Notes: generated by a model not told the origin, from the sequence alone. Shown: positions 20,819-44,848, counted from the first letter of the stretch. The stretch is 44,848 nt of DNA from an uncultured archaeon (GCA_963845175.1 CAWJRI010000006.1:1-44848), one strand, 5' to 3'. Numbers and translations are program-made.

Positions 20819-22135
20819 ATGTCCATATTTAAAGAATATGATATAAGGGGCGTGTATCCTTCTGAAATTGATGAAGAGATGGCTTACAGAATAGGGCATT
20901 CCATAGCCAAATATATGAAATCAAAGAAGCTTGTTGTTGGAATGGACGGAAGATTAAGCTCACCTTCGCTTGCCAGGGCGCTAATCAATGGTATTCTTGA
21001 TGAAGGTGTTGATGTCGTTGACATGGGGCTGGCTTCAACACCAATGTTCTACCATGCGCTCGTAAGGCTGAATCTGAAAGGAATTATGGTGACTGCATCT
21101 CATAACCCAAAGCAATACAACGGCTTCAAAATAGTGAAGGAAGATTCAATTCCATTGACCTATGAGCATGGAATAAAGCAGATAGAGGAAATTTTCCTGA
21201 AAAACAAGTTTGAAATGAAAAAACAGGGGCAATTGATAAAAAAAGACATCTTGAAGGAATATTCTGATTACATTTACAACAAGTTTGCAGCAAATGATTA
21301 TTCAAAATTGAAAATTGTAATTGATTTTTCAAATGGAGTCGGCGCGCTTCCAAAGAATGTATTTGACAGGTTGGAGATAAAAAACATAAAACTCGCAGAA
21401 AAAATAGACGGAAATTTTCCAAGGCATCCCTGTAATCCAATGATAAAAGAGAATGTTATTGATTTGCAGAAGGCAGTCAAAAAACAAAAAGCAGATGCAG
21501 GAATTATCTTTGACGGAGACGCTGACAGGGTTATTTTTGTCGATGAGAAAGGACAGATTGTCGGTGCAGACCTTGCATTTGTTCTTCTTGCAAGGGAAGC
21601 GCTGAAGCATTCGAAAAATAAGAAATGCTATTATGACCTAAGATTCAGCAAGATTGTCTGGGAAGAGATAAAAAAAGCAGGCGGAAAACCTATTATGATG
21701 AGAGTCGGCAACCCCTTCTACAAGAAAGCATTGCTGCTTGAAGGCGGTGTGCTTGCCATGGAATTGAGCGGGCACATAATGTACAAGGATAATTATGACA
21801 TAGATGATGCGCTTTATGCTTCATTAAAAATGCTGGTAATTCTTGCGAAAGAAAAGAAAAAATTTTCGGAACTTATTGCACCGCTGAAGAAATATTTCCA
21901 GACAGATGAAATTAATATAGAAGTGAAAAACAAGAAGGAAGTGCTGAAAAATATAGAAAAGAAATACGGGAACTGCAAAATCTTTAAATTAGACGGCATT
22001 TCCGCCTATGGAAATGGCTTCTGGTTCAACATAAGGGAAAGCCAGACAGAGCCGCTACTGAGGCTGAGGGTTGAGGCAGATACAAAACAATTGATGGAGT
22101 CTGTTATGAGGGAAATTTTAAAAGAGGCTGTATGA
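20819..22135 (+). CDS. phosphomannomutase/phosphoglucomutase
   Basis: Carries FKEYDIRGVY, the active-site loop TASHNPKQYNGFK and the metal loop FDGDADR. The C-terminal domain has the RESQTEPLLRLRVEA pattern (track: RESQTEPLLRLRVEAD). The first ATG is at 20819. Confidence 0.9.
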   Translation: MSIFKEYDIRGVYPSEIDEEMAYRIGHSIAKYMKSKKLVVGMDGRLSSPSLARALINGILDEGVDVVDMGLASTPMFYHALVRLNLKGIMVTASHNPKQYNGFKIVKEDSIPLTYEHGIKQIEEIFLKNKFEMKKQGQLIKKDILKEYSDYIYNKFAANDYSKLKIVIDFSNGVGALPKNVFDRLEIKNIKLAEKIDGNFPRHPCNPMIKENVIDLQKAVKKQKADAGIIFDGDADRVIFVDEKGQIVGADLAFVLLAREALKHSKNKKCYYDLRFSKIVWEEIKKAGGKPIMMRVGNPFYKKALLLEGGVLAMELSGHIMYKDNYDIDDALYASLKMLVILAKEKKKFSELIAPLKKYFQTDEINIEVKNKKEVLKNIEKKYGNCKIFKLDGISAYGNGFWFNIRESQTEPLLRLRVEADTKQLMESVMREILKEAV

Positions 22136-23931
22136 AAGTAATCCACAAATTCAAAAATTTCATAGTTGAAGGCGAAGGCATTGATAACTTCATTTTAACA
22201 AATAAGACGGGTGGCTATGCCTCATTTTCAAACAAGAGTATAAGCAAATATCAGGGTGTTTTCTTTAACGAAGGATTTGAAAAATTCAAGGTTATTGAGA
22301 ACATAAAGATTCCAGGAGAAATGAAGTCATTAATCAACAAGTTCTGGTGCGTTGAGAGGGAAAGGGAACTTGCAAAGGAGGCTATTTTCATGCCCACAGG
22401 ACACGACGCATTGGTTTACGCACTTGAGAGGGAAGCTGAAATAACACTTGTGCTTGACAGCAGGAAAATGTACGATTTTGATGAATGGGGCAGGAATTAC
22501 AAGATTCAGGAAAAGGACGGAAAGATAATTGTAACTTACACAAAAGAAAAAAAAGGCAAGAAAGAGTATGAGATTTATCTAGCAATTTTGCCGGACAGGC
22601 TTGACTATGACAAAATAGGTAAATGGAGAGAAGTCGATTATAGCTATGACAGCGCAAGGAAAAGCAAGTCAAAGATGTATGTTTACGACGCGCTGAAATT
22701 GAGGGCGAAACAGGTTGTTTTCGGATTTTCAACAAGCAAGGAAAAGGCGATTCAGGAGGCTGAGTTTGCAAAAAATAATATTGAAGCGCTGAAAAAAGAG
22801 AAATTAGATGAACTGCACACTCTAAAATTAGGGTTTATGCTTGACAGGCAGATAAAAATGGCTTATCTCTGCGCACAGGATTCCCTGAATAACTTAATCT
22901 GCAACATAAATAGCGAAGAAGGCATTCTTGCAGGACTTTACTGGTTTGACCAGTTCTGGTCGAGGGATGAATTAGTTAGCCTAAAGGCATTGATTCTTGA
23001 AGGAAAATATAAGCTTGTTAAGCAGATACTGTTTAAATACATAAGAAAAATCATGACAGATGGAAGACTGCCAAACAGGATTCCTGAATGGGGAAAAAGC
23101 GCTGATTCAATCGGTTGGCTTTTCAAGAGGGTTTCTGACTTGATTGAGATACTTGAGGAAAAAGGCATTCTGATGAAAACAATCAGCAGGACAGAAGCAA
23201 TGGAATTTAAAAGCGCAGTTGAAAAAGCTTCATTAAGTATCAAGAAAAATTATTCTTCTGAAGACGGATTAATACTTAATAAGGAAAAGGAAACTTGGAT
23301 GGATTCAGTTGCAAGAGATGGCGCAAGGATAGAGATACAGGCAATGCAGCTGAACATGTACAAATTAATGAAGAAATTGTGTAAAAAATTAAAAGATAAT
23401 GCAGGCTATATGCTTGCAGAGAAATCAGAGAAAGAACTTCTCGAAGTTGTAAGAAAAAATTTCTGGAACAAGCATTACCTTAATGACGGACTGAATGACA
23501 AGACAATAAGGCCGAATGTTTTCATTGCATATTACATTTATCCCGAGCTTCTTACGCAAAAGCAGTGGATGAAATGCTTCAGCAACATCCTTCCAAGGCT
23601 CTGGACCGGCTTAGGCTACAGCTCATTGGACATGCACCATCCTAATTTCCAGCCTTATCACACTGGCGAGGACGATAGGAGCTATCATAGCGGAGATTCC
23701 TGGCATTGGATTAATTGTCTTGCAACAATCTGCCTCTTCAGGCTTGGCAAATTCAGGTTCTACAAACACATACAAAAACCTGCAATGGCAGCTGCAAATG
23801 ATATTTTGTGGCAGGGTATACCTGGCTCTGCGTCAGAAATAAGCTCTGCAAAGGACCACAAGGCATTCGGCTGCTTTGACCAGGCATGGAGTAACGCTTT
23901 ATTCATTGAAATGATTGAAGAATTGTTTTAA
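22132..23931 (+). CDS. archaeal-type glycogen debranching enzyme (amylo-alpha-1,6-glucosidase, GDE_C-like)
   Basis: Carries GLYWFDQFWSRDELVSLKAL, DGRLPNRIP, GDSWHWINCL and DQAWSNALFIE, typical of the (alpha/alpha)6 GDE_C domain. The start overlaps the PMM stop. Confidence 0.8.
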   Translation: MKVIHKFKNFIVEGEGIDNFILTNKTGGYASFSNKSISKYQGVFFNEGFEKFKVIENIKIPGEMKSLINKFWCVERERELAKEAIFMPTGHDALVYALEREAEITLVLDSRKMYDFDEWGRNYKIQEKDGKIIVTYTKEKKGKKEYEIYLAILPDRLDYDKIGKWREVDYSYDSARKSKSKMYVYDALKLRAKQVVFGFSTSKEKAIQEAEFAKNNIEALKKEKLDELHTLKLGFMLDRQIKMAYLCAQDSLNNLICNINSEEGILAGLYWFDQFWSRDELVSLKALILEGKYKLVKQILFKYIRKIMTDGRLPNRIPEWGKSADSIGWLFKRVSDLIEILEEKGILMKTISRTEAMEFKSAVEKASLSIKKNYSSEDGLILNKEKETWMDSVARDGARIEIQAMQLNMYKLMKKLCKKLKDNAGYMLAEKSEKELLEVVRKNFWNKHYLNDGLNDKTIRPNVFIAYYIYPELLTQKQWMKCFSNILPRLWTGLGYSSLDMHHPNFQPYHTGEDDRSYHSGDSWHWINCLATICLFRLGKFRFYKHIQKPAMAAANDILWQGIPGSASEISSAKDHKAFGCFDQAWSNALFIEMIEELF

Positions 23932-24281
23932 GCATTTCCAACATAATAAGTCATGAAATCATTTTCTTTGTTTGTGATTTCCTGCTTTTTCATATAATTA
24001 AAATAAGCAGATTTAACTTCGTGAAACAACCATGACCTTGAAACTATTTCTGCGAATGGGTCGAAATCTTTGGCAATTCTGATAATCTCTTCGATGCTTT
24101 TATATTTTATCTGCATGACGCTGTGCTTTGGCTCCTCAAACCTGTCGAGAATAACTGCGCCGCTGTCGTCTATGAAAAGAACAGTTCCTGTGTCTGGGTC
24201 CATTTCTTTGCGCTCAATTAACTCTTTTATCTCGTCCTCAAGTTCGTTCCTGTTCATCTGATTGTATTGTTTATTTTCCAT
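23928..24281 (-). CDS. small protein, divergent paralog 3 of an operon-internal family
   Basis: 117 aa. It shares the pattern QY.QM...EL ... (V/M/F)(L/V/M)F(I/V)(D/E)D with 24902..25243 and 25245..25553. The start overlaps the upstream gene by 11 nt. Confidence 0.5.
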   Translation of the reverse strand: MENKQYNQMNRNELEDEIKELIERKEMDPDTGTVLFIDDSGAVILDRFEEPKHSVMQIKYKSIEEIIRIAKDFDPFAEIVSRSWLFHEVKSAYFNYMKKQEITNKENDFMTYYVGNA

Positions 24282-24900
24282 TTATCGCCTCCCAAGGCGA
24301 CTGGTAAACCACTTTTGACCTGCCGTCGCTGACTAGATACACACGATAGCCGTTTCCCAGGGCAGACAAAATATACTCTTCCCTGCCATAAGAACTGCGC
24401 ATGTCTAATTTACTTGGCTCTGGCTTTTCCCTATGGATATGAAAACCGCGCTTTCGCGAAGAGCCGAGATACAGCTTATTGCATTCTTCTCTTAGCGCTC
24501 TTCCTATTTTTGGCAAATCATGTGTTGCGTTTTTCTTTTTGTCGTAAATGTCAGAAACATATTTTGAAAGCAAAGATATTATTGGATTTCCTTCTGCGCT
24601 TGGGTTTGGTGTGTGTCTTGACGTCAGCTGATTTATTGAATCTGTCAGCCTGTCAACAACAGTTATGTTGCCTTGCTCAAGTTCGCGCGCTAATTTTCCA
24701 ATGTCAGCTATTTCATTCGGCTCTTCGATGAATTCAGCTCTGTTTCCGCAAATATCAACTCTCCCACCTGTCTCTGCGTAATCAATGCTGCACGCCTTTT
24801 TGACCAATGCCTGCAGCTGTTCTTTTAATCTTGGCTCTGTAAAATCTATTCTTGTCTCTTTTGTTCTTCCTAAAAAATAATTCATGAGTTTCTTCAGCAT
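24271..24900 (-). CDS. possible JAB/MPN+ (JAMM) metalloprotease-like protein with a long insertion
   Basis: 209 aa. The N-terminal IDFTEPRLKEQLQALVKKACSIDYAETGGRV fits the E-x-x-G motif context. The C-terminal GFHIHREKPEPSKLD gives HxH-x6-S-x2-D, one residue shorter than canonical HxH-x7-S-x2-D, and is followed by the strand YILSAL..YRVYLVS. Confidence 0.35.
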   Translation of the reverse strand: MLKKLMNYFLGRTKETRIDFTEPRLKEQLQALVKKACSIDYAETGGRVDICGNRAEFIEEPNEIADIGKLARELEQGNITVVDRLTDSINQLTSRHTPNPSAEGNPIISLLSKYVSDIYDKKKNATHDLPKIGRALREECNKLYLGSSRKRGFHIHREKPEPSKLDMRSSYGREEYILSALGNGYRVYLVSDGRSKVVYQSPWEAINGK

Positions 24901-24901
24901 T

Positions 24902-25243
24902 TTAGTTTAATGTCCTCGCTTTCCATCTTCTTTCATATTCTCTCTCCAGGTATTCAAACTCTTCACCAAAAAATGGCTTTATTACGAAGCCCAAGTCCTG
25001 ATATTCGCATTTAAGTGAGCGGATCTTGTCTATGATATCGCATTTACTGCTGTTGAAATGCTGGACTGTGTTGCTGTACAAGTCAAGGAATGTTATGTTA
25101 CGTTCATCTTCAATGAATACCATCCCCTTGACGCTGCGATCTATTGAGCCTTCTTTGAACCTGACTTCCGAGAGATTTACAAGCTCTCTTGTATCCATCT
25201 CATAATATGGTTTAATATCATAATATGGTCTAATTTCAAACAT
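24902..25243 (-). CDS. small protein, divergent paralog 2
   Basis: 113 aa. Carries KPYYEMDTRELVNL ... MVFIEDERNITFLDLY and a helical acidic/aromatic C-terminus ending ...KARTLN. Confidence 0.5.
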   Translation of the reverse strand: MFEIRPYYDIKPYYEMDTRELVNLSEVRFKEGSIDRSVKGMVFIEDERNITFLDLYSNTVQHFNSSKCDIIDKIRSLKCEYQDLGFVIKPFFGEEFEYLEREYERRWKARTLN

Positions 25244-25244
25244 C

Positions 25245-25553
25245 TTAATTCAGCCTCTGTTTTCTTTTTTCATATTCAACTATTTGATATGCTTCCTGCA
25301 ACTCTTTAATTATCGGATCCATCAGTTCGTTTCCCTTTATAATAGACTCAGGAAACTGCTTAATGAAATTGTTGACCTGCTCCTCTAAATTGTCTATTTT
25401 CTCCCAGTGTATTCTTCCGCCATTTCTTCTTTTTGGATGTATATAAGTTATGTAATCTTCATCAACAAACATGAAATGGTCTGAATTATATGAACTTGCC
25501 ATCTGAAATAAATCCTTAAATGTCATCTGACTGTATGGTTTCAGCTCAAGCAT
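25245..25553 (-). CDS. small protein, divergent paralog 1
   Basis: MLELKPYSQMTFKDLFQ (ATG 25553) is the preferred start. It gives an 8-nt overlap (ATGCTTGA) with the GH15 stop, whereas the track ORF (to 25655) would overlap GH15 by 110 nt. The protein ends ...KQRLN. Confidence 0.5.
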   Translation of the reverse strand: MLELKPYSQMTFKDLFQMASSYNSDHFMFVDEDYITYIHPKRRNGGRIHWEKIDNLEEQVNNFIKQFPESIIKGNELMDPIIKELQEAYQIVEYEKRKQRLN

Positions 25554-26565
25554 TTTCAGCCACCTCGTGCAAGCTCTGTGCCCAGCCCAATGGGCAGTTC
25601 TCGTTGTATTCGCTTGAATCCGCGAAGTAAAGCTCCGGAAGTTCATTGTATTCATTCATCGCTTTCAGGCTTTTGTGCATGTAATGAATGTGTTTTTGAT
25701 GGTTGCCGAGCTTCTTGTAGATTATCGCAAGCCAAGGAAATCCCATTGTCCACTCTGCCTCACCATTTTTGTTGTAGTATCTGTCGCCAATGTACCTAAT
25801 TACCCCTCTGTTTCTTACAAGTTTTTCCTCAACATTTTTAAGTATTTGCTCTCTCTGCTCGTTCGTCACAACCTCGTAGGGCCAGATTAAGGATAATAAA
25901 GCCATGTCAGTCTCTTTTGTCGCAGATTCTCTTGGAAGCAGCCTGTTCAATGTCTCCTGCCCCTTTTCAATAAGCTCGTTAGGAACAGTTATTAAATGCC
26001 ATTTGCCGCTAATCAAGAATGATGTCTGCCTTAGTTTCTTCAGTCCTGCTACGCATGCGCCGACAGAAGATGCGTGAACTTCCTCATTCTCCTCCCAGAC
26101 TCCGTTGTCTGCGTCGCCATGATATTGAATGGACTCGAGATAGAGGACAAGCTTCTGGACAATCCTGAGATCGTCCGCTGTCCTCATAATCTCGAAGCCC
26201 ATTTGCGTCAGTTCAGATAGCTTGAATAGAAATAATCCGATTGAATCGTTCTGCTTGTTTCCCCACTCCTGGTTGCTTTCTTCCAGATTGTGAGGATGGT
26301 ATCTTGCGTGAATGTAATCCTGTTTGTCTGATGGTTTGTTTTTGATTGCTGCGTCAATCTTGCTTTCGTGCTTTAGGAATATCGCAAGAAGTGTTCTGAA
26401 AGTTAGTGCAACAGCGTTTGGATCGACTGATTCCAAGCCCATTGCAGAATAAATATTATCACGAATCCAGGCCATATTGTAGCCTGTTGAAACTGTTTTC
26501 TTAGAGGCTGAAAATAGCCCGTTCTGATGTCTTAGTCCATTTAGTATCTGTACTGACGCTTTCAT
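25546..26565 (-). CDS. glycoside hydrolase family 15 (glucoamylase-like) catalytic domain protein
   Basis: Carries NGLFSAS...GYNMAWIRDNIYSAMGL, NGVWEENEEVHASSVGACVAGL and PELYF...NCPLGWAQSL, the (alpha/alpha)6 GH15 signature regions. Confidence 0.8.
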   Translation of the reverse strand: MKASVQILNGLRHQNGLFSASKKTVSTGYNMAWIRDNIYSAMGLESVDPNAVALTFRTLLAIFLKHESKIDAAIKNKPSDKQDYIHARYHPHNLEESNQEWGNKQNDSIGLFLFKLSELTQMGFEIMRTADDLRIVQKLVLYLESIQYHGDADNGVWEENEEVHASSVGACVAGLKKLRQTSFLISGKWHLITVPNELIEKGQETLNRLLPRESATKETDMALLSLIWPYEVVTNEQREQILKNVEEKLVRNRGVIRYIGDRYYNKNGEAEWTMGFPWLAIIYKKLGNHQKHIHYMHKSLKAMNEYNELPELYFADSSEYNENCPLGWAQSLHEVAENA

Positions 26566-26602
26566 TTAACCACCACATAATAGTAACATATTAAGTATAA
26601 CT

Positions 26603-26619
26603 AATATATAAATCTTTCT
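26603..26619 (-). promoter_or_regulatory. BRE/TATA-like promoter element AGAAAGATTTATATATT
   Basis: On the minus strand, about 40 nt upstream of ATG 26565, with GGTGG 5 nt before the ATG. The TATATA core is symmetric, so it might also serve the + strand ORF at 26637. Confidence 0.45.
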
Positions 26620-26636: not shown

Positions 26637-26900
26637 GTGGTAAAAAACAACAGATTTTTATATATGCTAATTTTACCCAAAAACATGACAGATTTAGAAT
26701 ATATGCTTTGCCCAGAAGGCCATGCTATTTGTTATTCAAGGGGCAATGCTGCCAGGGATTTTTCTGATAATGAAAAAGATGCAATGTCATTGCAGCCGAT
26801 GTTTGAATGGGGATTGTACTGCTTCCAGTGCGACATGGCTTATGGAATGAGCAAGCTCAAGGAGCCTGAAAATAAACATGAGCTTGGAAAAAATTCTTGA
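26637..26900 (+). CDS. small Cys/His-containing protein, start uncertain
   Basis: The track ORF starts at GTG 26637, with ATG alternatives at 26664 and 26685. A TTTATATA box at 26656-26663 would fit a leaderless ATG at 26685. C..H...C..C residues (CPEGHAIC, CFQC) suggest metal binding. Confidence 0.4.
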   Translation: MVKNNRFLYMLILPKNMTDLEYMLCPEGHAICYSRGNAARDFSDNEKDAMSLQPMFEWGLYCFQCDMAYGMSKLKEPENKHELGKNS

Positions 26901-27318
26901 GAATAAAGACAATGCCAGGTATGCAAAATCAGAGTTAGCTGGATTTGTAACAGGATATTCGCTTGCAACCATAACGACGATTTTATTGAAGCATTACGAT
27001 GCCAGCAACGTAGCGAATGTATTCTTTACATATGCTGCAAAAGACCTTGGTTTTACAACAGGCAAGGTTCTTTCGCACAGGCGCGATTATTTGAAGCTGA
27101 TAAAATCCTGCTTCTCAGCAGTAGGATTAAATGTTATATTGCAATTAGGCGTACATTATTTAGTTCTCAGCAAGGATTATGTGCCATATTACATTGCTCC
27201 TCTTGTTTCGTATGCAATTCCCGGAATGATATCAACAAGCTATCGCTGGCGTCGGGATTATAAAGGAAAACTTGTTTTGAATGATGCAAAAAATAATGGG
27301 ACGAATGCCGGCGCTTAA
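26878..27318 (+). CDS. integral membrane protein, function unknown
   Basis: 146 aa with 3-4 hydrophobic helices. Overlaps the preceding ORF by 23 nt. Confidence 0.45.
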   Translation: MSLEKILENKDNARYAKSELAGFVTGYSLATITTILLKHYDASNVANVFFTYAAKDLGFTTGKVLSHRRDYLKLIKSCFSAVGLNVILQLGVHYLVLSKDYVPYYIAPLVSYAIPGMISTSYRWRRDYKGKLVLNDAKNNGTNAGA

Positions 27319-28049
27319 GAATATTCAACTATCTGCATCAGCCTGTCATAAATCCGCCTGAAACATCCATTCACATCCGCATCTATCTCCAGCTTCTCAA
27401 CCTGCATATTCTTCAGCATCGAATTCAGCTTCTCAAAAATCTTTATCTGCCTGTCTGACAGGCTCAGCTTGCTTTTCGTGGCAAATTCAGCCAGCTCCTT
27501 CAGCAAGTCCCCAAGCTCCTCGAAAGAAGCTGCTTTGTAGAATAATCTGCTGTTATTCCTGTTTAGCCTCATTGCAATATTCGCCTGCTTGTTTATGTTT
27601 GCGTCTGCATAGGCTATGTGCGCCAAGTTCTTTTCCCTGTTCTTGAAATCCTTCAAAATCTCGTCGAAAGAATCAGCCAGCAATGATTGCAGTTTCTGCA
27701 TTGCATTCTCTTCTTTTCCAGAAATATATTTTATCAAACAGCTGTCTTTTTTCTGCTGGACAATATCAAAGCCAGGCAGTTCATTCAGGATTTCTCTTGC
27801 TTTGTCAATTACTTTAATATCTTTAAACCTTATCTCAATCTCGTCAAATCCCTCCCTGTAAAGAGAAATCAATTTCTGCATCTTATCTGCTTCTATTGAA
27901 GCTGACCTAGAAGAAGTTATGATTACTGCGTTTTCTTGCTCTTCAATACTGACTTCGTCCCCTTTTTTAAGATTGAACCTTTTGACCCATTTAATAGGCA
28001 GGGAAACCATCAATGTTGCTATTCCCTGTTTCACTAGCTTTCTCTTCAT
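27315..28049 (-). CDS. AbrB/SpoVT-domain regulator with helical PhoU-like C-terminal region (tentative)
   Basis: MKRKLVKQGIATLMVSLPIKWVKRFNLKKGDEVSIEE is an AbrB/SpoVT swapped-hairpin motif. ATG 28049 is preceded by AGGAGG. The N-terminal extension to 28124 in the track looks non-coding. Confidence 0.55.
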   Translation of the reverse strand: MKRKLVKQGIATLMVSLPIKWVKRFNLKKGDEVSIEEQENAVIITSSRSASIEADKMQKLISLYREGFDEIEIRFKDIKVIDKAREILNELPGFDIVQQKKDSCLIKYISGKEENAMQKLQSLLADSFDEILKDFKNREKNLAHIAYADANINKQANIAMRLNRNNSRLFYKAASFEELGDLLKELAEFATKSKLSLSDRQIKIFEKLNSMLKNMQVEKLEIDADVNGCFRRIYDRLMQIVEYS

Positions 28050-28286
28050 TTGCTTCCTCCTTATTGGGGGTGGCCTTAAAATAAAAAAAGAGCAAAAGGA
28101 AGTATTTGCTGTTTGGCGGTCCAATCCTTCTGCTCACAAGGCGTGACGCTCTTTCTGAAGCAAAAATATAAAGATATAGCTAATATTTAAACTTTTCTAT
28201 TTTATTTATAATTTTATTAAAAGTATATACTTTTTAAAAATGCGAAAGATATTTTTATATATGAAAATACAAAAAAAGAAAGCGAT

Positions 28287-37408: not shown

Positions 37409-37497
37409 CGGGCCGGACGGGATTTTCAAGCTTGTTTTTGAACCCGCGACCACCTCATTAAAAGTGAGGTGCGCTAGCCAGACTGCGCTACCGGCCC
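37409..37497 (-). tRNA. tRNA-Lys (anticodon UUU) with a 14-nt intron in the T-loop
   Basis: Minus strand: GGGCCGG TA GCGC AGTCTGGCTA GCGC A CCTCA CTTTTAA TGAGG TGGTC GCGGG [TTCAAAAACAAGCTTGAAAAT] CCCGT CCGGCCC G. All stems pair. The T-loop is 21 nt instead of 7, and TTCAA/TTGAA form a helix. No encoded CCA. Confidence 0.85.
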
Positions 37498-40649: not shown

Positions 40650-41327
40650 CTGCTCCTTGCATCAAAGCTCTGCGTGGCTTCATAGGGGAAGGTCGCGCCA
40701 TCAAGATGCCCTTGGCCAGACCATCCTGCGTTTCAGCAGGCGGCACAGGCAACGGCACGGCGCCGAGCGCGGGAATAACCTGCGCAAATTGCTCACCCGC
40801 ATAGCGGATGCGCAGGCCCTTGAAGTCGGCGATTGTTGTAATCTTCTGGCTTGGATGTATGGAACATCAGCGGATTGGTGACAGCCATCCAGAGAATTTC
40901 TTCAGGCCGTTATGTTCGGCGGCGAGAAATTCGGGAGCCAGTTCCGTCAGGCGCTTCGAGGTGACCACGCTATGCTCGCCAGCTTTGGGATGCACATAAG
41001 GCAGGCTGACGAGTTCGGTCGTGGGATAGCGACCAGGCGTTGCGCCGTGCAAGCCAACCGCAATATCGGCCACGCCCGAGCGCGCGAGATCAAACTGGCG
41101 ATTGACTGGACCGAGTTGTGAAGCGGGAAAAATATTGACTTCAAACGGCCGCCCGATTTTTCAGACAGTTCTTCGCCCCAACGCACGAGTTCCTTCTGGA
41201 ACGTGTCGTTCGGCGGAAGATAATGGGAGACCTTCAGCTCAACGGTCTGAGCAGCGGCAAAAGTGCAGGATGCGATCAGTGTGGCGGACGCGATGCTTCC
41301 AGCGAGCGCGCGACAAGTCATGCTCAT
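40650..41327 (-). pseudogene. TRAP-transporter periplasmic solute-binding protein (DctP family), frame-broken and 3'-truncated
   Basis: AAGGAGG lies 6 nt upstream of ATG 41327. Signal peptide MSMTCRALAGSIASATLIASCTFAAAQ, then VELKVSHYLPPNDTFQKELVRWGEELSEKSGGRL. It continues in other frames as ADIAVGLHGATPGRYPTTELVSLPYV...TSKRLTELAPEFLAAEH, then ITTIADFKGLRIRYAGEQFAQVIPALGAVPLPVPPAETQDGLAKGI and DGATFPYEATQSFD. About 100 aa of the C-terminus are missing. Confidence 0.7.
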
Positions 41328-41473
41328 GGTGTTCCTCCTTGCTTTCCTCTTCCTGATCGGCCGGGTCACTCTTTGGTGCGCCTGTACCGTATCATGGACT
41401 AGAGTACCGCATGGCGATACCCCGTCAAGCAGGAGGGCGAATTCTCGCCCCCCTCCCATTGGTAGCCCTGTGC

Positions 41474-42245
41474 TTAACGCGCCATGGCGGAGCGGATCCG
41501 CTTGCGGAAGGCTTTGAGCTGGCGAGACAAATCGTCTTTCTGCTCATCAAACCGTTGCGAGGGGACAGATGGAACGGCCACCGGGGCGTCCCATTGTGTC
41601 GAGCAGAGCAATGCCAACGGCTGAAATGCCTTCGCCATGTTCCTCAAGATCAAAAGCCAGATTGGTCTTGCGGATCTCCTCAAGCTCGGCATGCAGTTTG
41701 GCGCGATGCTTCAACGGAAAATCCGGATGCTCAGCCAAGCTCTTGTCGATGAGCTCTTCGGCATCTTCAGGCGAGAAGCAGGCTAGGATCGCTTTGCCAT
41801 TGGCTGTGCAGTGCAGCGGAAAGCGCTCGCCGACGGCCGAGACGGCCACCAGCCGATGGCGGCCAGGAACCTGGTCAACAAAAACCGTGGAGCCGCCTGA
41901 CAAGACCGCCAGATCAACTGTTTCGCCGACTTCTTCGCCCAGCGTGCGCAAATAGGGGCGGATGATATCCGCCGTGTTAGAGCCCACAGATGCTGCGATG
42001 CGAACAAGAGCAGGGCCGATGCGCACATCGCCCGGACCGGATGCAATGACCAAGTCTTCCGCCGCAAGCGCGGCGACAATGCGCTGCACGGTCGAGCGTG
42101 CCAGATCGACAGATTTGGCAATCTGCCCAAAACTCAGCCCGTCCGGATGGTTCTCAAGTGTGCGCAAAATGCTGGCCGCTCGCGCGATCACTTGGATGCC
42201 GACTTGCGTACCGTTCTTTTCTTCAGGATCTTTGACGTCCTGCAT
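41474..42245 (-). pseudogene. IclR-family transcriptional regulator with one frameshift near the C-terminus
   Basis: AGGAGG precedes ATG 42245. wHTH segment LSFGQIAKSVDLARSTVQRIVAALAAEDLV and effector domain RFPLHCTANGKAILA...EEHGEGISAVGIALLDTMGRP. The expected end VAVPSVPSQRFDEQKDDLSRQLKAFRKRIRSAMAR is in the ORF 41474..41692 frame. Confidence 0.8.
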
Positions 42246-42420
42246 TCTTCCTCCTTCGACCGGCCTTGAACGCGCCTGGGAAAAACCGCGCGACAGCCGA
42301 TTGACCGTCATATGGTACATGCGTATCGTATCATGGACCACAAGAAATTTGGCGGCGATCAGCTGCAAAAAAGATAGGCGGCAATTCCGCCGCGGGATGA
42401 AGCGCAAACGGAGGACGATT

Positions 42421-43263
42421 ATGCCCGTGACCATTCGCGGCATTCAGTTCGAGGACAATCTCGATAATTCCATTGGGCTTGAATTCTACAATCTGTCGCA
42501 TCGGTTTGGCTATCAATCGCCGAACTGGCCCTATTTCGAAGACGTGAAGATCGAGCGCATTCACTATATGGCGAAGTCCGGCGTGCTGACGCAGCGCATC
42601 ACGACGAGTATGCACAACACTACGCATATCGACGCGCCGGCCCATGTCGTGTCGGGCACGCCTTTCATCAACGAAGTGCCGCTGCCGCATTTTTTTGGCA
42701 GCGGAATCGTCGTGTCGATGCCGAAGAAGAAGTGGGAATCGATCACTTATGAAGACCTCGAAAAGGCGGCCGGCAAAGTCGTGCGCCCCGGCGATGTCGT
42801 CATCGTCAATACCGGCTGGCATCGCATCTATGAGGACAACGAGGATTATTTTGCGCGCGCCCCCGGTTTCGTGCCGTCCGCCGCCGATTGGTTCGTCGAG
42901 AAGAAAGTGAAGGTCATTGGCCACGACACGCAGGCCAATGATCATCCGCTCGCAACCGCCATCGGCCCGCAGCGCAATGGTCCGCTGCTGCCGCATCTCG
43001 CCGAGGAATATCGCGAATGGTCGGGCGGACACGACTGGAAGGACGATTTTCCCGAATGGGAGCCGGTGCATCGCAAATTGTTCAAGAACGGCATTCTCGG
43101 CATCGAGAATGTCGGTGGCGATCTCGACAAGGTGACGGGCAAGCGGGTCACCTTTGCATTCTTTCCTTGGAACTGGGAGCGTGGCGACGGCTGTATCATC
43201 CGCCTCGTCGCCATCATCGACAAGCGCGGGGAGTACCGGATCGAACGCGGGGAGGCCTTCTGA
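42421..43263 (+). CDS. putative cyclase-family protein (kynurenine-formamidase-like fold)
   Basis: Metal motif SMHNTTHIDAPAH (HxxTHxDAPxH), NTGWH and GHDTQANDHP. This is the only gene in the GC-rich block with an intact frame. The part of the track ORF upstream of 42421 is antisense to iclR. Confidence 0.75.
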   Translation: MPVTIRGIQFEDNLDNSIGLEFYNLSHRFGYQSPNWPYFEDVKIERIHYMAKSGVLTQRITTSMHNTTHIDAPAHVVSGTPFINEVPLPHFFGSGIVVSMPKKKWESITYEDLEKAAGKVVRPGDVVIVNTGWHRIYEDNEDYFARAPGFVPSAADWFVEKKVKVIGHDTQANDHPLATAIGPQRNGPLLPHLAEEYREWSGGHDWKDDFPEWEPVHRKLFKNGILGIENVGGDLDKVTGKRVTFAFFPWNWERGDGCIIRLVAIIDKRGEYRIERGEAF

Positions 43264-43614
43264 TGCATGTCAAATCTTTTGCCGATGCCAAGCCTTACGA
43301 GGCGCCGAATCATCGCGGCGTAGTGGGTCTGCGGCTCCAGGGATTCGAGCCCGGCGGCCCGACCAATCAATGGGTCGGCCTCTCGCAGTTCCTCCCGGGC
43401 GGCGGTGCCGGGCCCGATTTCGACGCCTTTCGAAAAAGTCTATGTCGTCATTGAAGGCGAGATGACGTTGATCGTCGGCGGCCAGGAGACAATTCTGAAA
43501 CGCTACGATTCCTGCACGATTGCGCCCGCAGAGGTGCGCGAACTGGTCAATCGCACGAACCACACCGCAACGATGCTGGTCGTCATCCCCTATCCGCCGG
43601 GAACGCAGCCATGA
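43263..43614 (+). pseudogene. cupin-domain protein with one frameshift
   Basis: MHVKSFADAKPYEAPNHRGVVGLRLQG...QFLPGGGAGPDFDAF, then in another frame EKVYVVIEGEMTLIVGGQETILKRYDSCTIAPAEVRELVN. The break is at about 43427-43432. The start overlaps the cyclase stop (ATGA-like TGATG). Confidence 0.65.
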
Positions 43615-44413
43615 GTTCGGATTTCTTGAAAAACCCCCTTTCGCTGTTCGACATCAAAGGAAAGGTCGCGATCATAGCGGGCGCTTCCGGAGCTTTCGGG
43701 GCGCTTGCGGCCCAAGTTCTCGCCGGCGCCGGATGCCGGCTCGTGCTCGCCGCCGGCAATGCCTCTGCGCTGCAGAATGTTGCGCAAAGCTGCCGCGAAG
43801 CGGGCGCCGAAGTTGAGGCGGTGAATTTGCGTCCCAATTCCGAAGAGGCCTGCCAAAAATCGTTGAGGCGGGCACTATGCGCTTCGGCCGTGTCGATATT
43901 CTCGTTGTCGCCTCCGGCAAGAATGACGTCGGCAAGATTACCGATATGACGCCTTCTCGCTTCCTCGACGTGATGGATGCCAATGTCACGCAATCCTGGC
44001 TGATGGCGCGAGCCGCGACGCGGCAAATGCTGGCCCAGGGCGAGGGCGGCAAGATCGTACTGATGTCGTCGGCTCGTGGCTTGCTCGGCCATCCGGCGGG
44101 TTATACCGCTTATTGCGCCTCGAAATCGGCGGTTGACGGCATGACCAAGGCGTTTGGTTGCGAACTTGGCGGCAGCGGCATTACGGTCAATGCCATTGCG
44201 CCGACTGTATTCCGGTCGCCGCTGACCGCCTGGATGTTCGAAGAGACCGACCAGGCCAAAACGGTGCGCCAGGGTTTTTTGAGCCGGGTTCCGAAGGGTC
44301 GGCTCGGCGAACCGGAGGATCTCGCGGGGCCGTTGCTCTTTCTCGCCTCGGCGGCATCGAATTTTTACACGGGCCACGTCCTTTATGCGGACGGCGGCTA
44401 TACGGCAGGCTGA
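43611..44413 (+). pseudogene. short-chain dehydrogenase/reductase (SDR) with one frameshift in an A5 run
   Basis: GKVAIIAGASGAFG (TGxxxGxG-like). After a frame change at the A5 run 43854-43858 it continues KIVEAGTMRFGRVDILVVASG, then MSSARG, catalytic YxxxK (YCASKSAV) and P-G ... GHVLYADGGYTAG. Confidence 0.8.
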
Positions 44414-44414
44414 A

Positions 44415-44848
44415 ATGGCGGGCAAGGCGCGGATTGCCATCCTCGGCGCCGGGCTCATGGGCCACGGCATCGCTCAGGTCTTTGCGCGGCACGGCCACAA
44501 CGTGCGCGTTTACGATGCGACAGGCCTCGCGCACACGCTTCGCGAGCGGATCCAGAGCAATCTGCGCGACCTAGGACGAGGCCATTGATCGCGTTGCCCT
44601 GTCGCAAGCGTCAAAGAGGCGGTCGTTGCGGATGCCGATTTCATTATCGAAGTCCGTCCGAAAATCTAGGTGTCAAACGGGCGATTTTCGGCAATCGGAT
44701 CCCTCGCGCGCAGGATGCGATCATCGCCAGCAATACCTCGGTCATTCCGATCGCCTCGATCGAGGAGGTTCCGCGATCGATCGCGTGCATGCTCGGCACG
44801 CATTGGTGGAACCCGCCTTTCCTTCGTGCCCTCATTTCCTCAAATAGT
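44415..44848 (+). pseudogene. 3-hydroxyacyl-CoA dehydrogenase (NAD-binding domain), frame-broken and running off the window
   Basis: MAGKARIAILGAGLMGHGIAQVFARHGHNVRVYD is a Rossmann GxGxxG. In another frame it continues DADFIIE, then ENLGVKRAIFGN...DAIIASNTSVIPIASI...MLGTHWWNPPFL. Confidence 0.7.

Follow-up and report, generated by a model that had tools for sequence, protein, structure and literature searches.

The window analysed in this work is a stretch of 44,848 nucleotides (nt) from an uncultured archaeon (GCA_963845175.1, CAWJRI010000006.1:1-44848), and all coordinates below follow the numbering of this whole stretch. Its minus strand carries a group of five genes, the first of which is a GH15 gene (25546-26565, 339 amino acids (aa), Pfam Glyco_hydro_15). 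This is followed by two small genes, P1 (25245-25553, 102 aa, isoelectric point (pI) 5.6) and P2 (24902-25243, 113 aa, pI 5.1), which are the first and second cassettes of an array, by a 209-aa ORFan lying between P2 and P3 (P209; 24271-24900), which is basic (pI 9.1) when compared to the pI of 4.8 to 5.6 of its small neighbours, and by the last cassette, P3 (23928-24281, 117 aa, pI 4.8). On the plus strand, a gene for a debranching enzyme of the amylo-alpha-1,6-glucosidase type (GDE; 22132-23931; Pfam GDE_C, 1.2e-37), preceded by a phosphoglucomutase (PGM) gene, converges on the array and forms the right-hand border of the variable slot described below. GH15 and P1 overlap by 8 nt, the P1 ATG at 25553 lying within the final GH15 codons (ATGCTTGA). 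A single nucleotide separates P1 from P2 and P2 from P209, P209 and P3 overlap by 11 nt, and the stops of P3 and the convergent GDE gene overlap by 4 nt. In addition, a purine-rich Shine-Dalgarno (SD)-like motif is found 6-13 nt before the ATG of every small gene (GAGGTGG, AGAGG, GAGGA, GGGAGG). A first-pass annotation of this DNA had listed the same open reading frames (ORFs), order and overlaps, all of which proved exact on the minus strand, including the overlap with the debranching enzyme gene, seen here at the P3 and GDE stops. Its suggestion of translational coupling is also consistent with the stop-start overlaps, the 1-nt gaps and the SD motif of each gene: all five genes run in the same direction in a single, tightly packed unit whose spacing (-8, +1, +1 and -11 nt) and individual SD motifs would fit such coupling.

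The sole intergenic space able to house a promoter is the one upstream of GH15, as the cassettes leave no room for promoters of their own. An A/T-rich, TATA-like box (TTTATATATT; 26603-26612, minus strand) can be read there 38-47 nt upstream of the GH15 ATG, with an SD-like GTGGTGG (26570-26576) between this box and the GH15 start, and the box appears to be the only candidate promoter for the five-gene unit. A scan for sigma-70/bacterial-type promoters and terminators, which is unsuited to archaea, returned sites no more frequently than in shuffled sequences. Substitution rates mark the four small genes as genuine coding sequences on which purifying selection acts, because the ratio of nonsynonymous to synonymous substitution rates (dN/dS) against orthologs in related contigs was well below 1 in all comparisons (0.17-0.35 for P1, 0.08-0.12 for P2, 0.09-0.42 for P3 and 0.21 for P209). 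The corresponding values were 0.07-0.11 for GH15 and 0.05-0.11 for GH15 and GDE together. Furthermore, the reading frames were intact in five or more independent contigs. The coding signal that the annotation had asked of the small ORFs is therefore present, with dN/dS values of 0.08-0.42 and intact frames in relatives.

It is very probable that P1, P2 and P3 form a single ORFan family of tandem paralogs that have diverged from one another. Although pairwise BLAST among the three was not significant (E 0.17-0.55), profile-profile comparison of small family alignments with hhalign related P1 to P3 (P=8e-5, 71 columns), P2 to P3 (P=0.0025) and P1 to P2 (P=0.02), and the three alignments share one register, K-x-Y-x-Q/E-M-x3-E/D-L followed by a strand ending in F-I/V-D/E-D. 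In HMMER shuffle tests the real score was reached by 0-5 of 2000 shuffles in most P1 to P2, P3 to P2 and P2 to P3 comparisons, and the result was weak for P2 to P1 and P3 to P1 (12-241 of 2000). Searched against the 612 six-frame ORFs of the window, the P1 profile had P3 and P2 as its top non-self matches and the P3 profile had P2; among 4546 ORFs of metagenome loci, the only match of the P3 profile at E<=0.1 was a P2 ortholog on contig L089. In contig L087 an unambiguous second P1-type gene (E 3e-16) occupies the P2 position, so tandem duplication inside the array is directly seen. The paralogy proposed in the first-pass annotation is thus borne out by profile-profile comparison, shuffle tests and shared register as a similarity above chance, though weak; the loose N-terminal motif and F(I/V)(D/E)D strand on which it was based reappear in the hhalign register, and the shared ending it gave as (R)(T)LN for two of the proteins corresponds to the C-termini ...QRLN of P1 and ...RTLN of P2. 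P2 also carries an N-terminal mini-duplication (RPYYD/IKPYYE; EIRPYY / DIKPYY; residues 3-14, window 25202-25237), which doubles the K/R-P-Y motif marking the start of all three paralogs.

The P1-P3 proteins are small, acidic and cytoplasmic, and their predicted fold is alpha-beta-beta-beta-alpha-beta-alpha. The structural comparison that the annotation had proposed was made with an AlphaFold2 model of P1, P2 and P3 as one concatenated, linker-less chain built on a five-sequence alignment, and it gave the same order of elements, alpha1-beta1-beta2-beta3-alpha2-beta4-alpha3, in all three. Block-averaged values of the predicted local distance difference test (pLDDT) lay at about 70-88 in the cores of P1 and P3; in P2, whose C-terminal part is of low confidence, most core values were 63-78, and there was no confident packing between domains (predicted template modelling score, pTM, 0.36). 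As the annotation had stated, the proteins belong to no recognisable family: Pfam, NCBIfam, PADLOC and PHROGs gave chance-level matches only, and a search of Protein Data Bank (PDB) sequences with the family profiles gave nothing below E 0.1. A match of P3 to SUKH_6 was discarded as an identity (E=0.069, 14.1 bits with a cut-off of 27; absent in 11 of 12 family members). Foldseek searches of the concatenated model in PDB and BFVD found no significant match (best E 1.9e-3, template modelling (TM) score <=0.2, with the concatenation depressing TM-scores); the top matches were RNase H-like and ASKHA folds and small uncharacterised phage proteins, a likeness of topology only.

P209 is a protein of a different kind. 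The first-pass annotation had called it protease-like, a description that found no backing, since no peptidase family, fold or motif was detected in Pfam, NCBIfam, PHROGs or PDB and only a helical core is predicted. Searches of Pfam, NCBIfam, PADLOC, PHROGs and PDB sequences gave no match apart from a chance-level MTase_I (14 bits). Its AlphaFold2 model has a pLDDT of 53 with a helical core at residues 61-146 only, and Foldseek with this low-confidence model returned generic helical bundles only (E>=0.2). The possibility that P209 is a diverged member of the P family was rejected (hhalign P=0.39). DNA alignment with contigs L082 and L084 delimits P209 as a precise 630-bp indel with clean boundaries, between the P2 stop and the fourth codon of P3. 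These two contigs, in which GH15 is 94% identical, lack P209, and there the P2 stop is followed by ...TAAAATGATGAAGCAATAC..., the start of P3. In the window P209 starts at that very ATG (ATGCTGAAGAAA, identical to the start of the P3 ortholog in L087), and P3 resumes at CAATAC after a new ATG supplied by the insert. Among approximately 15 billion proteins P209 has a single homolog (72% identity), on contig L081, where a divergent P1-type gene precedes it and GDE comes immediately after it, with no P3. P209 is an unrelated basic ORFan, recently inserted exactly at a cassette boundary in the lineage of this strain; it is not an ancestral part of the array, because close relatives lack it.

The close relatives were retrieved via the 90% cluster of GH15, and about ten contigs carry the family, in six array architectures. 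The window has P1-P2-P209-P3. The arrangement P1-P2-P3 is present in L082, L083 and L084 and in part in L086 and L089, and the order of GH15 followed by the array is therefore not unique to the window. L087 has P1, a P1 paralog (P1') and P3, followed by a TreT-like glycosyltransferase gene, L088 has P1-P3, L081 has a P1'' gene followed by P209', and a 9163-bp contig, available as a gene table only, has a single 114-aa gene. Orthologs of P1 are found in L082, L083, L084, L086 and L087 (63-90% identity), and the 8-nt overlap with GH15 is kept in relatives as ATGTTTGA or ATGCATGA. P2 orthologs are found in L082 and L084 (95-96% identity), P2 being missing from L087, where the P1 paralog takes its place, and from L088 and L081. 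P3 orthologs are found in L082, L083, L084, L087 and L088 (56-89% identity).

The number and identity of the cassettes vary between strains whose flanking genes are approximately 80-95% identical, and the alleles themselves are mosaic. Between the window and L082, nucleotide identity is 0.77-0.79 in P1, around 0.9 in the flanks and 0.94-0.98 in P2, and P2 remains at 0.93-0.98 across the window comparisons. P3 falls to 0.69-0.73 between the window and L084, with flanks mostly at 0.9 or above, and its synonymous divergence (dS) is 1.12 compared to 0.39-0.43 in the flanks; this looks more as if a diverged allele had been imported than as if the gene had changed faster in place. The cassettes also have similar boundaries: every P1- or P2-type gene ends in (L/I)N-stop followed by one base and then by ATG, most cassette starts read ATG-(C/T)T(T/G)-(G/A)A(G/A), and the P1 and P2 starts in L082 and L084 have 16 of 21 bases in common.

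Two of these contigs hold a spacer of 165-205 bp between P3 and GDE (L082:2232-2396 and L084:4911-5115) that is not in the window. At its start lies a remnant of a second GDE 3' end, about 22 bp long in L082 and about 64 bp long in L084; it also holds palindromes such as CGCGTAACCGCGCG together with an A5-hairpin-T5 element, and we read the spacer as a putative recombination scar at the right border of the slot. The idea that this palindrome-bearing spacer is a repeated mobile element was rejected, since each locus has a single copy of the core and the window has none. In L087 the TreT-like gene, a GT4 glycosyltransferase, is inserted between P3 and GDE (L087:8675-9886), and a Ser/Thr protein kinase gene lies upstream of GH15 (L087:3627-5420), a further turnover around the glycogen gene cluster.

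The GH15 gene itself is conserved across Woesearchaeota, and 160 related loci were collected. Its product falls within the family by its match to Pfam PF00723 Glyco_hydro_15 (8.4e-16, 58.3 bits, cut-off 22), which covers profile positions 23-204 of 427 only. The protein is a catalytic-type domain alone, without the N-terminal domain usual in prokaryotic glucoamylases, and the solved structures closest to it in sequence are those of the GH15-like domains in the phosphorylase kinase alpha and beta subunits (E 9e-21 and 8e-15), not those of glucoamylases. In line with this, close orthologs are likewise named phosphorylase kinase regulatory subunits by JGI. As to the catalytic acid and base glutamates, the sequence shows a W-E-E motif (VWEENEE) and, further on, a PELY motif, and the model of the archaeal trehalase TreH1 scored 29.9 bits (cut-off 820).

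The 160 loci comprised 80 genome loci, with GH15 relatives from one-genome-per-species contigs, and 80 metagenome loci. The relatives in the genome loci are 55-65% identical and come nearly all from Woesearchaeota/Nanoarchaeota (DPANN) genome bins. GDE adjoins GH15 in 47 of the 80 genome loci and lies downstream and convergent in 40 of these 47, as in the window, at distances from a few-base overlap up to 5.2 kb. Across lineages, the occupants of the space between the two genes comprise 38 same-strand ORFs (90 aa or longer) that occur as singletons and a few small shared families; most have no Pfam match, the occasional recognisable occupants include GNAT and metallophosphoesterase genes, and many ORFs of other lineages have a start that coincides with the GH15 stop or overlaps it. 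The region 3' of GH15 is a general variable slot across Woesearchaeota, and therefore adjacency to GH15 says little on function. The first-pass annotation had called the linkage of the small genes to GH15 unexpected. They are indeed untypical of glycogen catabolism, but their linkage is explained by their position in this variable slot.

The P family, in turn, is confined to a small clade. Single-sequence and family-profile searches found no homologs of P1, P2, P3 or P209 in the 80 genome loci, and 79 of the 80 metagenome loci, with GH15 at 65% identity or less, lacked a P or P209 gene, the exception being L089, which is the same contig as L086. When the four proteins were searched exhaustively with phmmer in a set of 1.84 billion representative proteins, six matches were obtained in total: a P209 homolog (72%), orthologs of P1, P2 and P3 (89-95%), one P1-like protein (41%) and one leucine-rich-repeat protein of 2317 aa, which we discarded as spurious. 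A protein search with a 12-sequence alignment found six family members, one of them new (P0021). Viral contigs held no relative of the P proteins or P209, the DNA runs held only 6-8% of the sequence words, and a literature search returned nothing on such genes.

The reading that we favour, with moderate confidence, is that the array is a clade-restricted set of accessory cassettes in the variable slot between GH15 and GDE, which uses the GH15 promoter and is not part of glycogen catabolism. Such partners are missing from most GH15 orthologs, unrelated genes fill the slot in other lineages, and the P set differs among strains whose GH15 is 94% identical. For these reasons we read the array as accessory cargo and not as part of glycogen breakdown; the link to GH15 looks like shared expression rather than shared chemistry. 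The slot between the convergent GH15 and GDE genes of this Woesearchaeota (DPANN) genome appears to be recombination-prone. In such a scheme, transcription would start from the GH15 promoter, translation would proceed by stop-start overlap or 1-nt spacing with an SD motif for each gene, and recombination between repeated cassette boundaries would delete, duplicate or swap whole cassettes while preserving the coupling. The P proteins, in turn, would be non-enzymatic binders, a strain-variable accessory cargo expressed via GH15. They are read in this way because they are small and acidic and carry no catalytic signature; a role as binding proteins is suggested here with low confidence, and P209-like partners, GH15 or GDE, and foreign proteins are the candidate targets.

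Several observations weigh against this interpretation. Wherever the upstream side is visible the array lies directly behind GH15 with the same 8-nt overlap, across a dS of at least 1.2, the partial contigs L081 and L088 put the array against GDE in the same slot, and no copy occurs elsewhere; such a strict position equally fits a specific functional tie to GH15. Recombination of cassettes rests on few examples, as only about ten contigs carry the family, and no recombinase or defined recombination site was found. In addition, the kinship of P1 and P2 appears as the weakest link, with weak statistics (hhalign P=0.02), the evidence on the fold comes from one concatenated chain with a very shallow alignment, and co-transcription of the five genes is something that we infer from their layout.

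Two other explanations were considered in detail, and both are ranked below the reading of the array as accessory cargo. The small genes could belong to a conflict module, in which P1-P3 would be immunity- or antitoxin-like neutralisers diversifying under frequency-dependent selection and P209 a toxin-like effector of some strains. The contrast between acidic paralogs (pI 4.8-5.6) and a basic P209 (pI 9.1) coupled to P3 by the 11-nt overlap, the changes in copy number, the mosaic alleles with raised dS, as if divergent alleles had been imported, the presence or absence of P209 among near-identical strains and the location in a variable slot are all in keeping with this. However, PADLOC, Pfam and NCBIfam contained no toxin, immunity or defence match, the SUKH_6 match occurs in one of 12 members (E 0.069), and known immunity families are widespread whereas the P family is confined to one small clade. 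Furthermore, most arrays are entirely without P209, and in L081 it has a different P gene before it and no P3 after it, so that there is no fixed pair of toxin and partner, and we regard a conflict module as unlikely. A more elaborate version, which we consider improbable, would be a self-contained cassette-shuffling locus, in which the boundaries ((L/I)N-stop, one base, ATG-CTK-RAR) would serve as recombination points and allow genes to be exchanged, duplicated or inserted whole without loss of translational coupling, the P proteins would make up strain-specific repertoires of immunity-like binders and P209 would be the matching effector.

The second explanation takes the proximity to GH15 at face value, with P1-P3 as accessory or regulatory subunits, either adaptors or inhibitors, of GH15 or of the GH15/GDE pair, kept at a fixed ratio by the coupling. 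It would account for the fact that all occurrences with a visible upstream side are directly downstream of GH15 with the conserved 8-nt start/stop overlap and that no P copies exist elsewhere, as well as for purifying selection kept across a GH15 divergence down to 81% identity, and the relatedness of this GH15 to the regulatory GH15-like domains of phosphorylase kinase, which act in a multi-subunit complex, points in the same direction. Yet 159 GH15 loci, with enzymes 55-65% identical, have no P gene, and in several of them GH15 and GDE directly abut; the P set varies among strains with 94% identical GH15, unrelated genes occupy the same position in other lineages, and the concatenated P1-P3 model, of which GH15 was not part, had no confident packing between domains (pTM 0.36). 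A partnership with GH15 is thus doubtful, and we hold it to be slightly less likely than a conflict module. Lastly, the non-significant pairwise BLAST of P1, P2 and P3 and the lack of database homologs outside the clade might suggest that the small ORFs are non-coding or decaying and their shared motif coincidental. This has a negligible probability and is excluded: dN/dS is far below 1 throughout, at least five independent contigs keep the frames intact, the SD motifs and coupled starts have been conserved, the similarity across the family is above that of shuffles and the predicted P1-P3 folds are confident and alike.

Among known kinds of locus, variable genomic islets with lineage-specific ORFans are the closest to the array. 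As in these islets, the flanks (GH15, GDE and PGM) are conserved, the contents differ by lineage and strain and most occupants belong to no known family; unlike them, the slot is very small, at 0-5 kb, and is flanked by convergent genes, its occupants here are a tandem array of paralogs fused into the translation unit of the upstream gene, and no integrase, tRNA or repeat-bounded element was seen. Paralogous immunity-gene arrays are known in polymorphic-toxin and bacteriocin loci, the SUKH/SMI1-KNR4 superfamily being an example. The present array resembles them in its tandem, small, acidic and fast-diverging paralogs, its variation in copy number and the unrelated basic protein interleaved in some strains, but it has no sequence or structure match to immunity families and no large toxin gene or secretion system nearby, its upstream gene is a housekeeping-type GH15 and the family is limited to one small clade. 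P1-P3 are accordingly not assigned to SUKH/SMI1-KNR4. The 11-nt overlap of a basic (P209) and a small acidic (P3) gene recalls type II toxin-antitoxin pairs, although the pairing is not conserved (P2-P209-P3 in the window, P1''-P209-GDE in L081), no toxin-antitoxin family was matched, and P209, predicted to be mainly helical, is large for a toxin at 209 aa; P209 with a P protein does not qualify as such a pair. The resemblance to immunity arrays and toxin-antitoxin pairs is one of layout only. Finally, the predicted core of P1-P3 shares the beta-beta-beta-alpha-beta-alpha order of elements with small RNase H-like/HicB-N-like proteins, but there was no significant match, no Pfam HicB or RNase H hit and no established pattern of catalytic carboxylates. 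The P family is new, having no relatives, whereas the variable slot as a phenomenon is familiar.

DPANN archaea have many genes of unknown function and a poorly understood strain-level variation, and this locus is a compact and well-delimited example, in which a new family of small proteins and an unrelated ORFan are under purifying selection and yet are reshuffled cassette-wise between close strains, apparently always relying on the expression signals of a single conserved enzyme gene. It also calls for caution in inferring function from adjacency, as a permissive slot is the best explanation for the link to GH15. On present evidence, the locus is of modest interest as a curiosity and does not amount to a new kind of system. 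If the P proteins bind GH15 or form an immunity-type system, they would offer a small, testable entry into the regulation or conflict biology of DPANN archaea, and a cassette-shuffling locus, if true, would represent a conflict or recognition system that has not been described before in episymbiotic archaea.

Other features of the window lie outside the array. At its far end, 41000-44848 has a G+C content of 57-60%, compared to 32-45% over most of the contig (46-51% at 31-36 kb). This segment has no rRNA or other Rfam match and may have been gained by horizontal transfer or reflect a chimeric join in the assembly; in it, a gene for a bacterial-type IclR regulator (41547-42443, minus strand) and one for a putative cyclase (41962-43263, plus strand) overlap on opposite strands. 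A 59-nt Rfam tRNA match at 37439-37497 (minus strand; 31.5 bits, gathering threshold 29, whole model covered) may be a truncated, split or otherwise atypical tRNA, and ARAGORN found no tRNA in the whole window.

Closer to the array, the divergent space upstream of GH15 holds an 87-aa ORF (26637-26900, plus strand) with paired cysteines (C-x2-H...C-x2-C) and no family match, and the set of genes upstream of GH15 differs between the window, L084 and L087. Between this region and the ribosomal-protein genes lies a gene for a 269-aa protein with an N-terminal AbrB/MazE-type (SpoVT) domain (27315-28124, minus strand), which is probably a transcription factor rather than an antitoxin; similar genes, coding for 244 and 298 aa, are found in the same neighbourhood of relatives.

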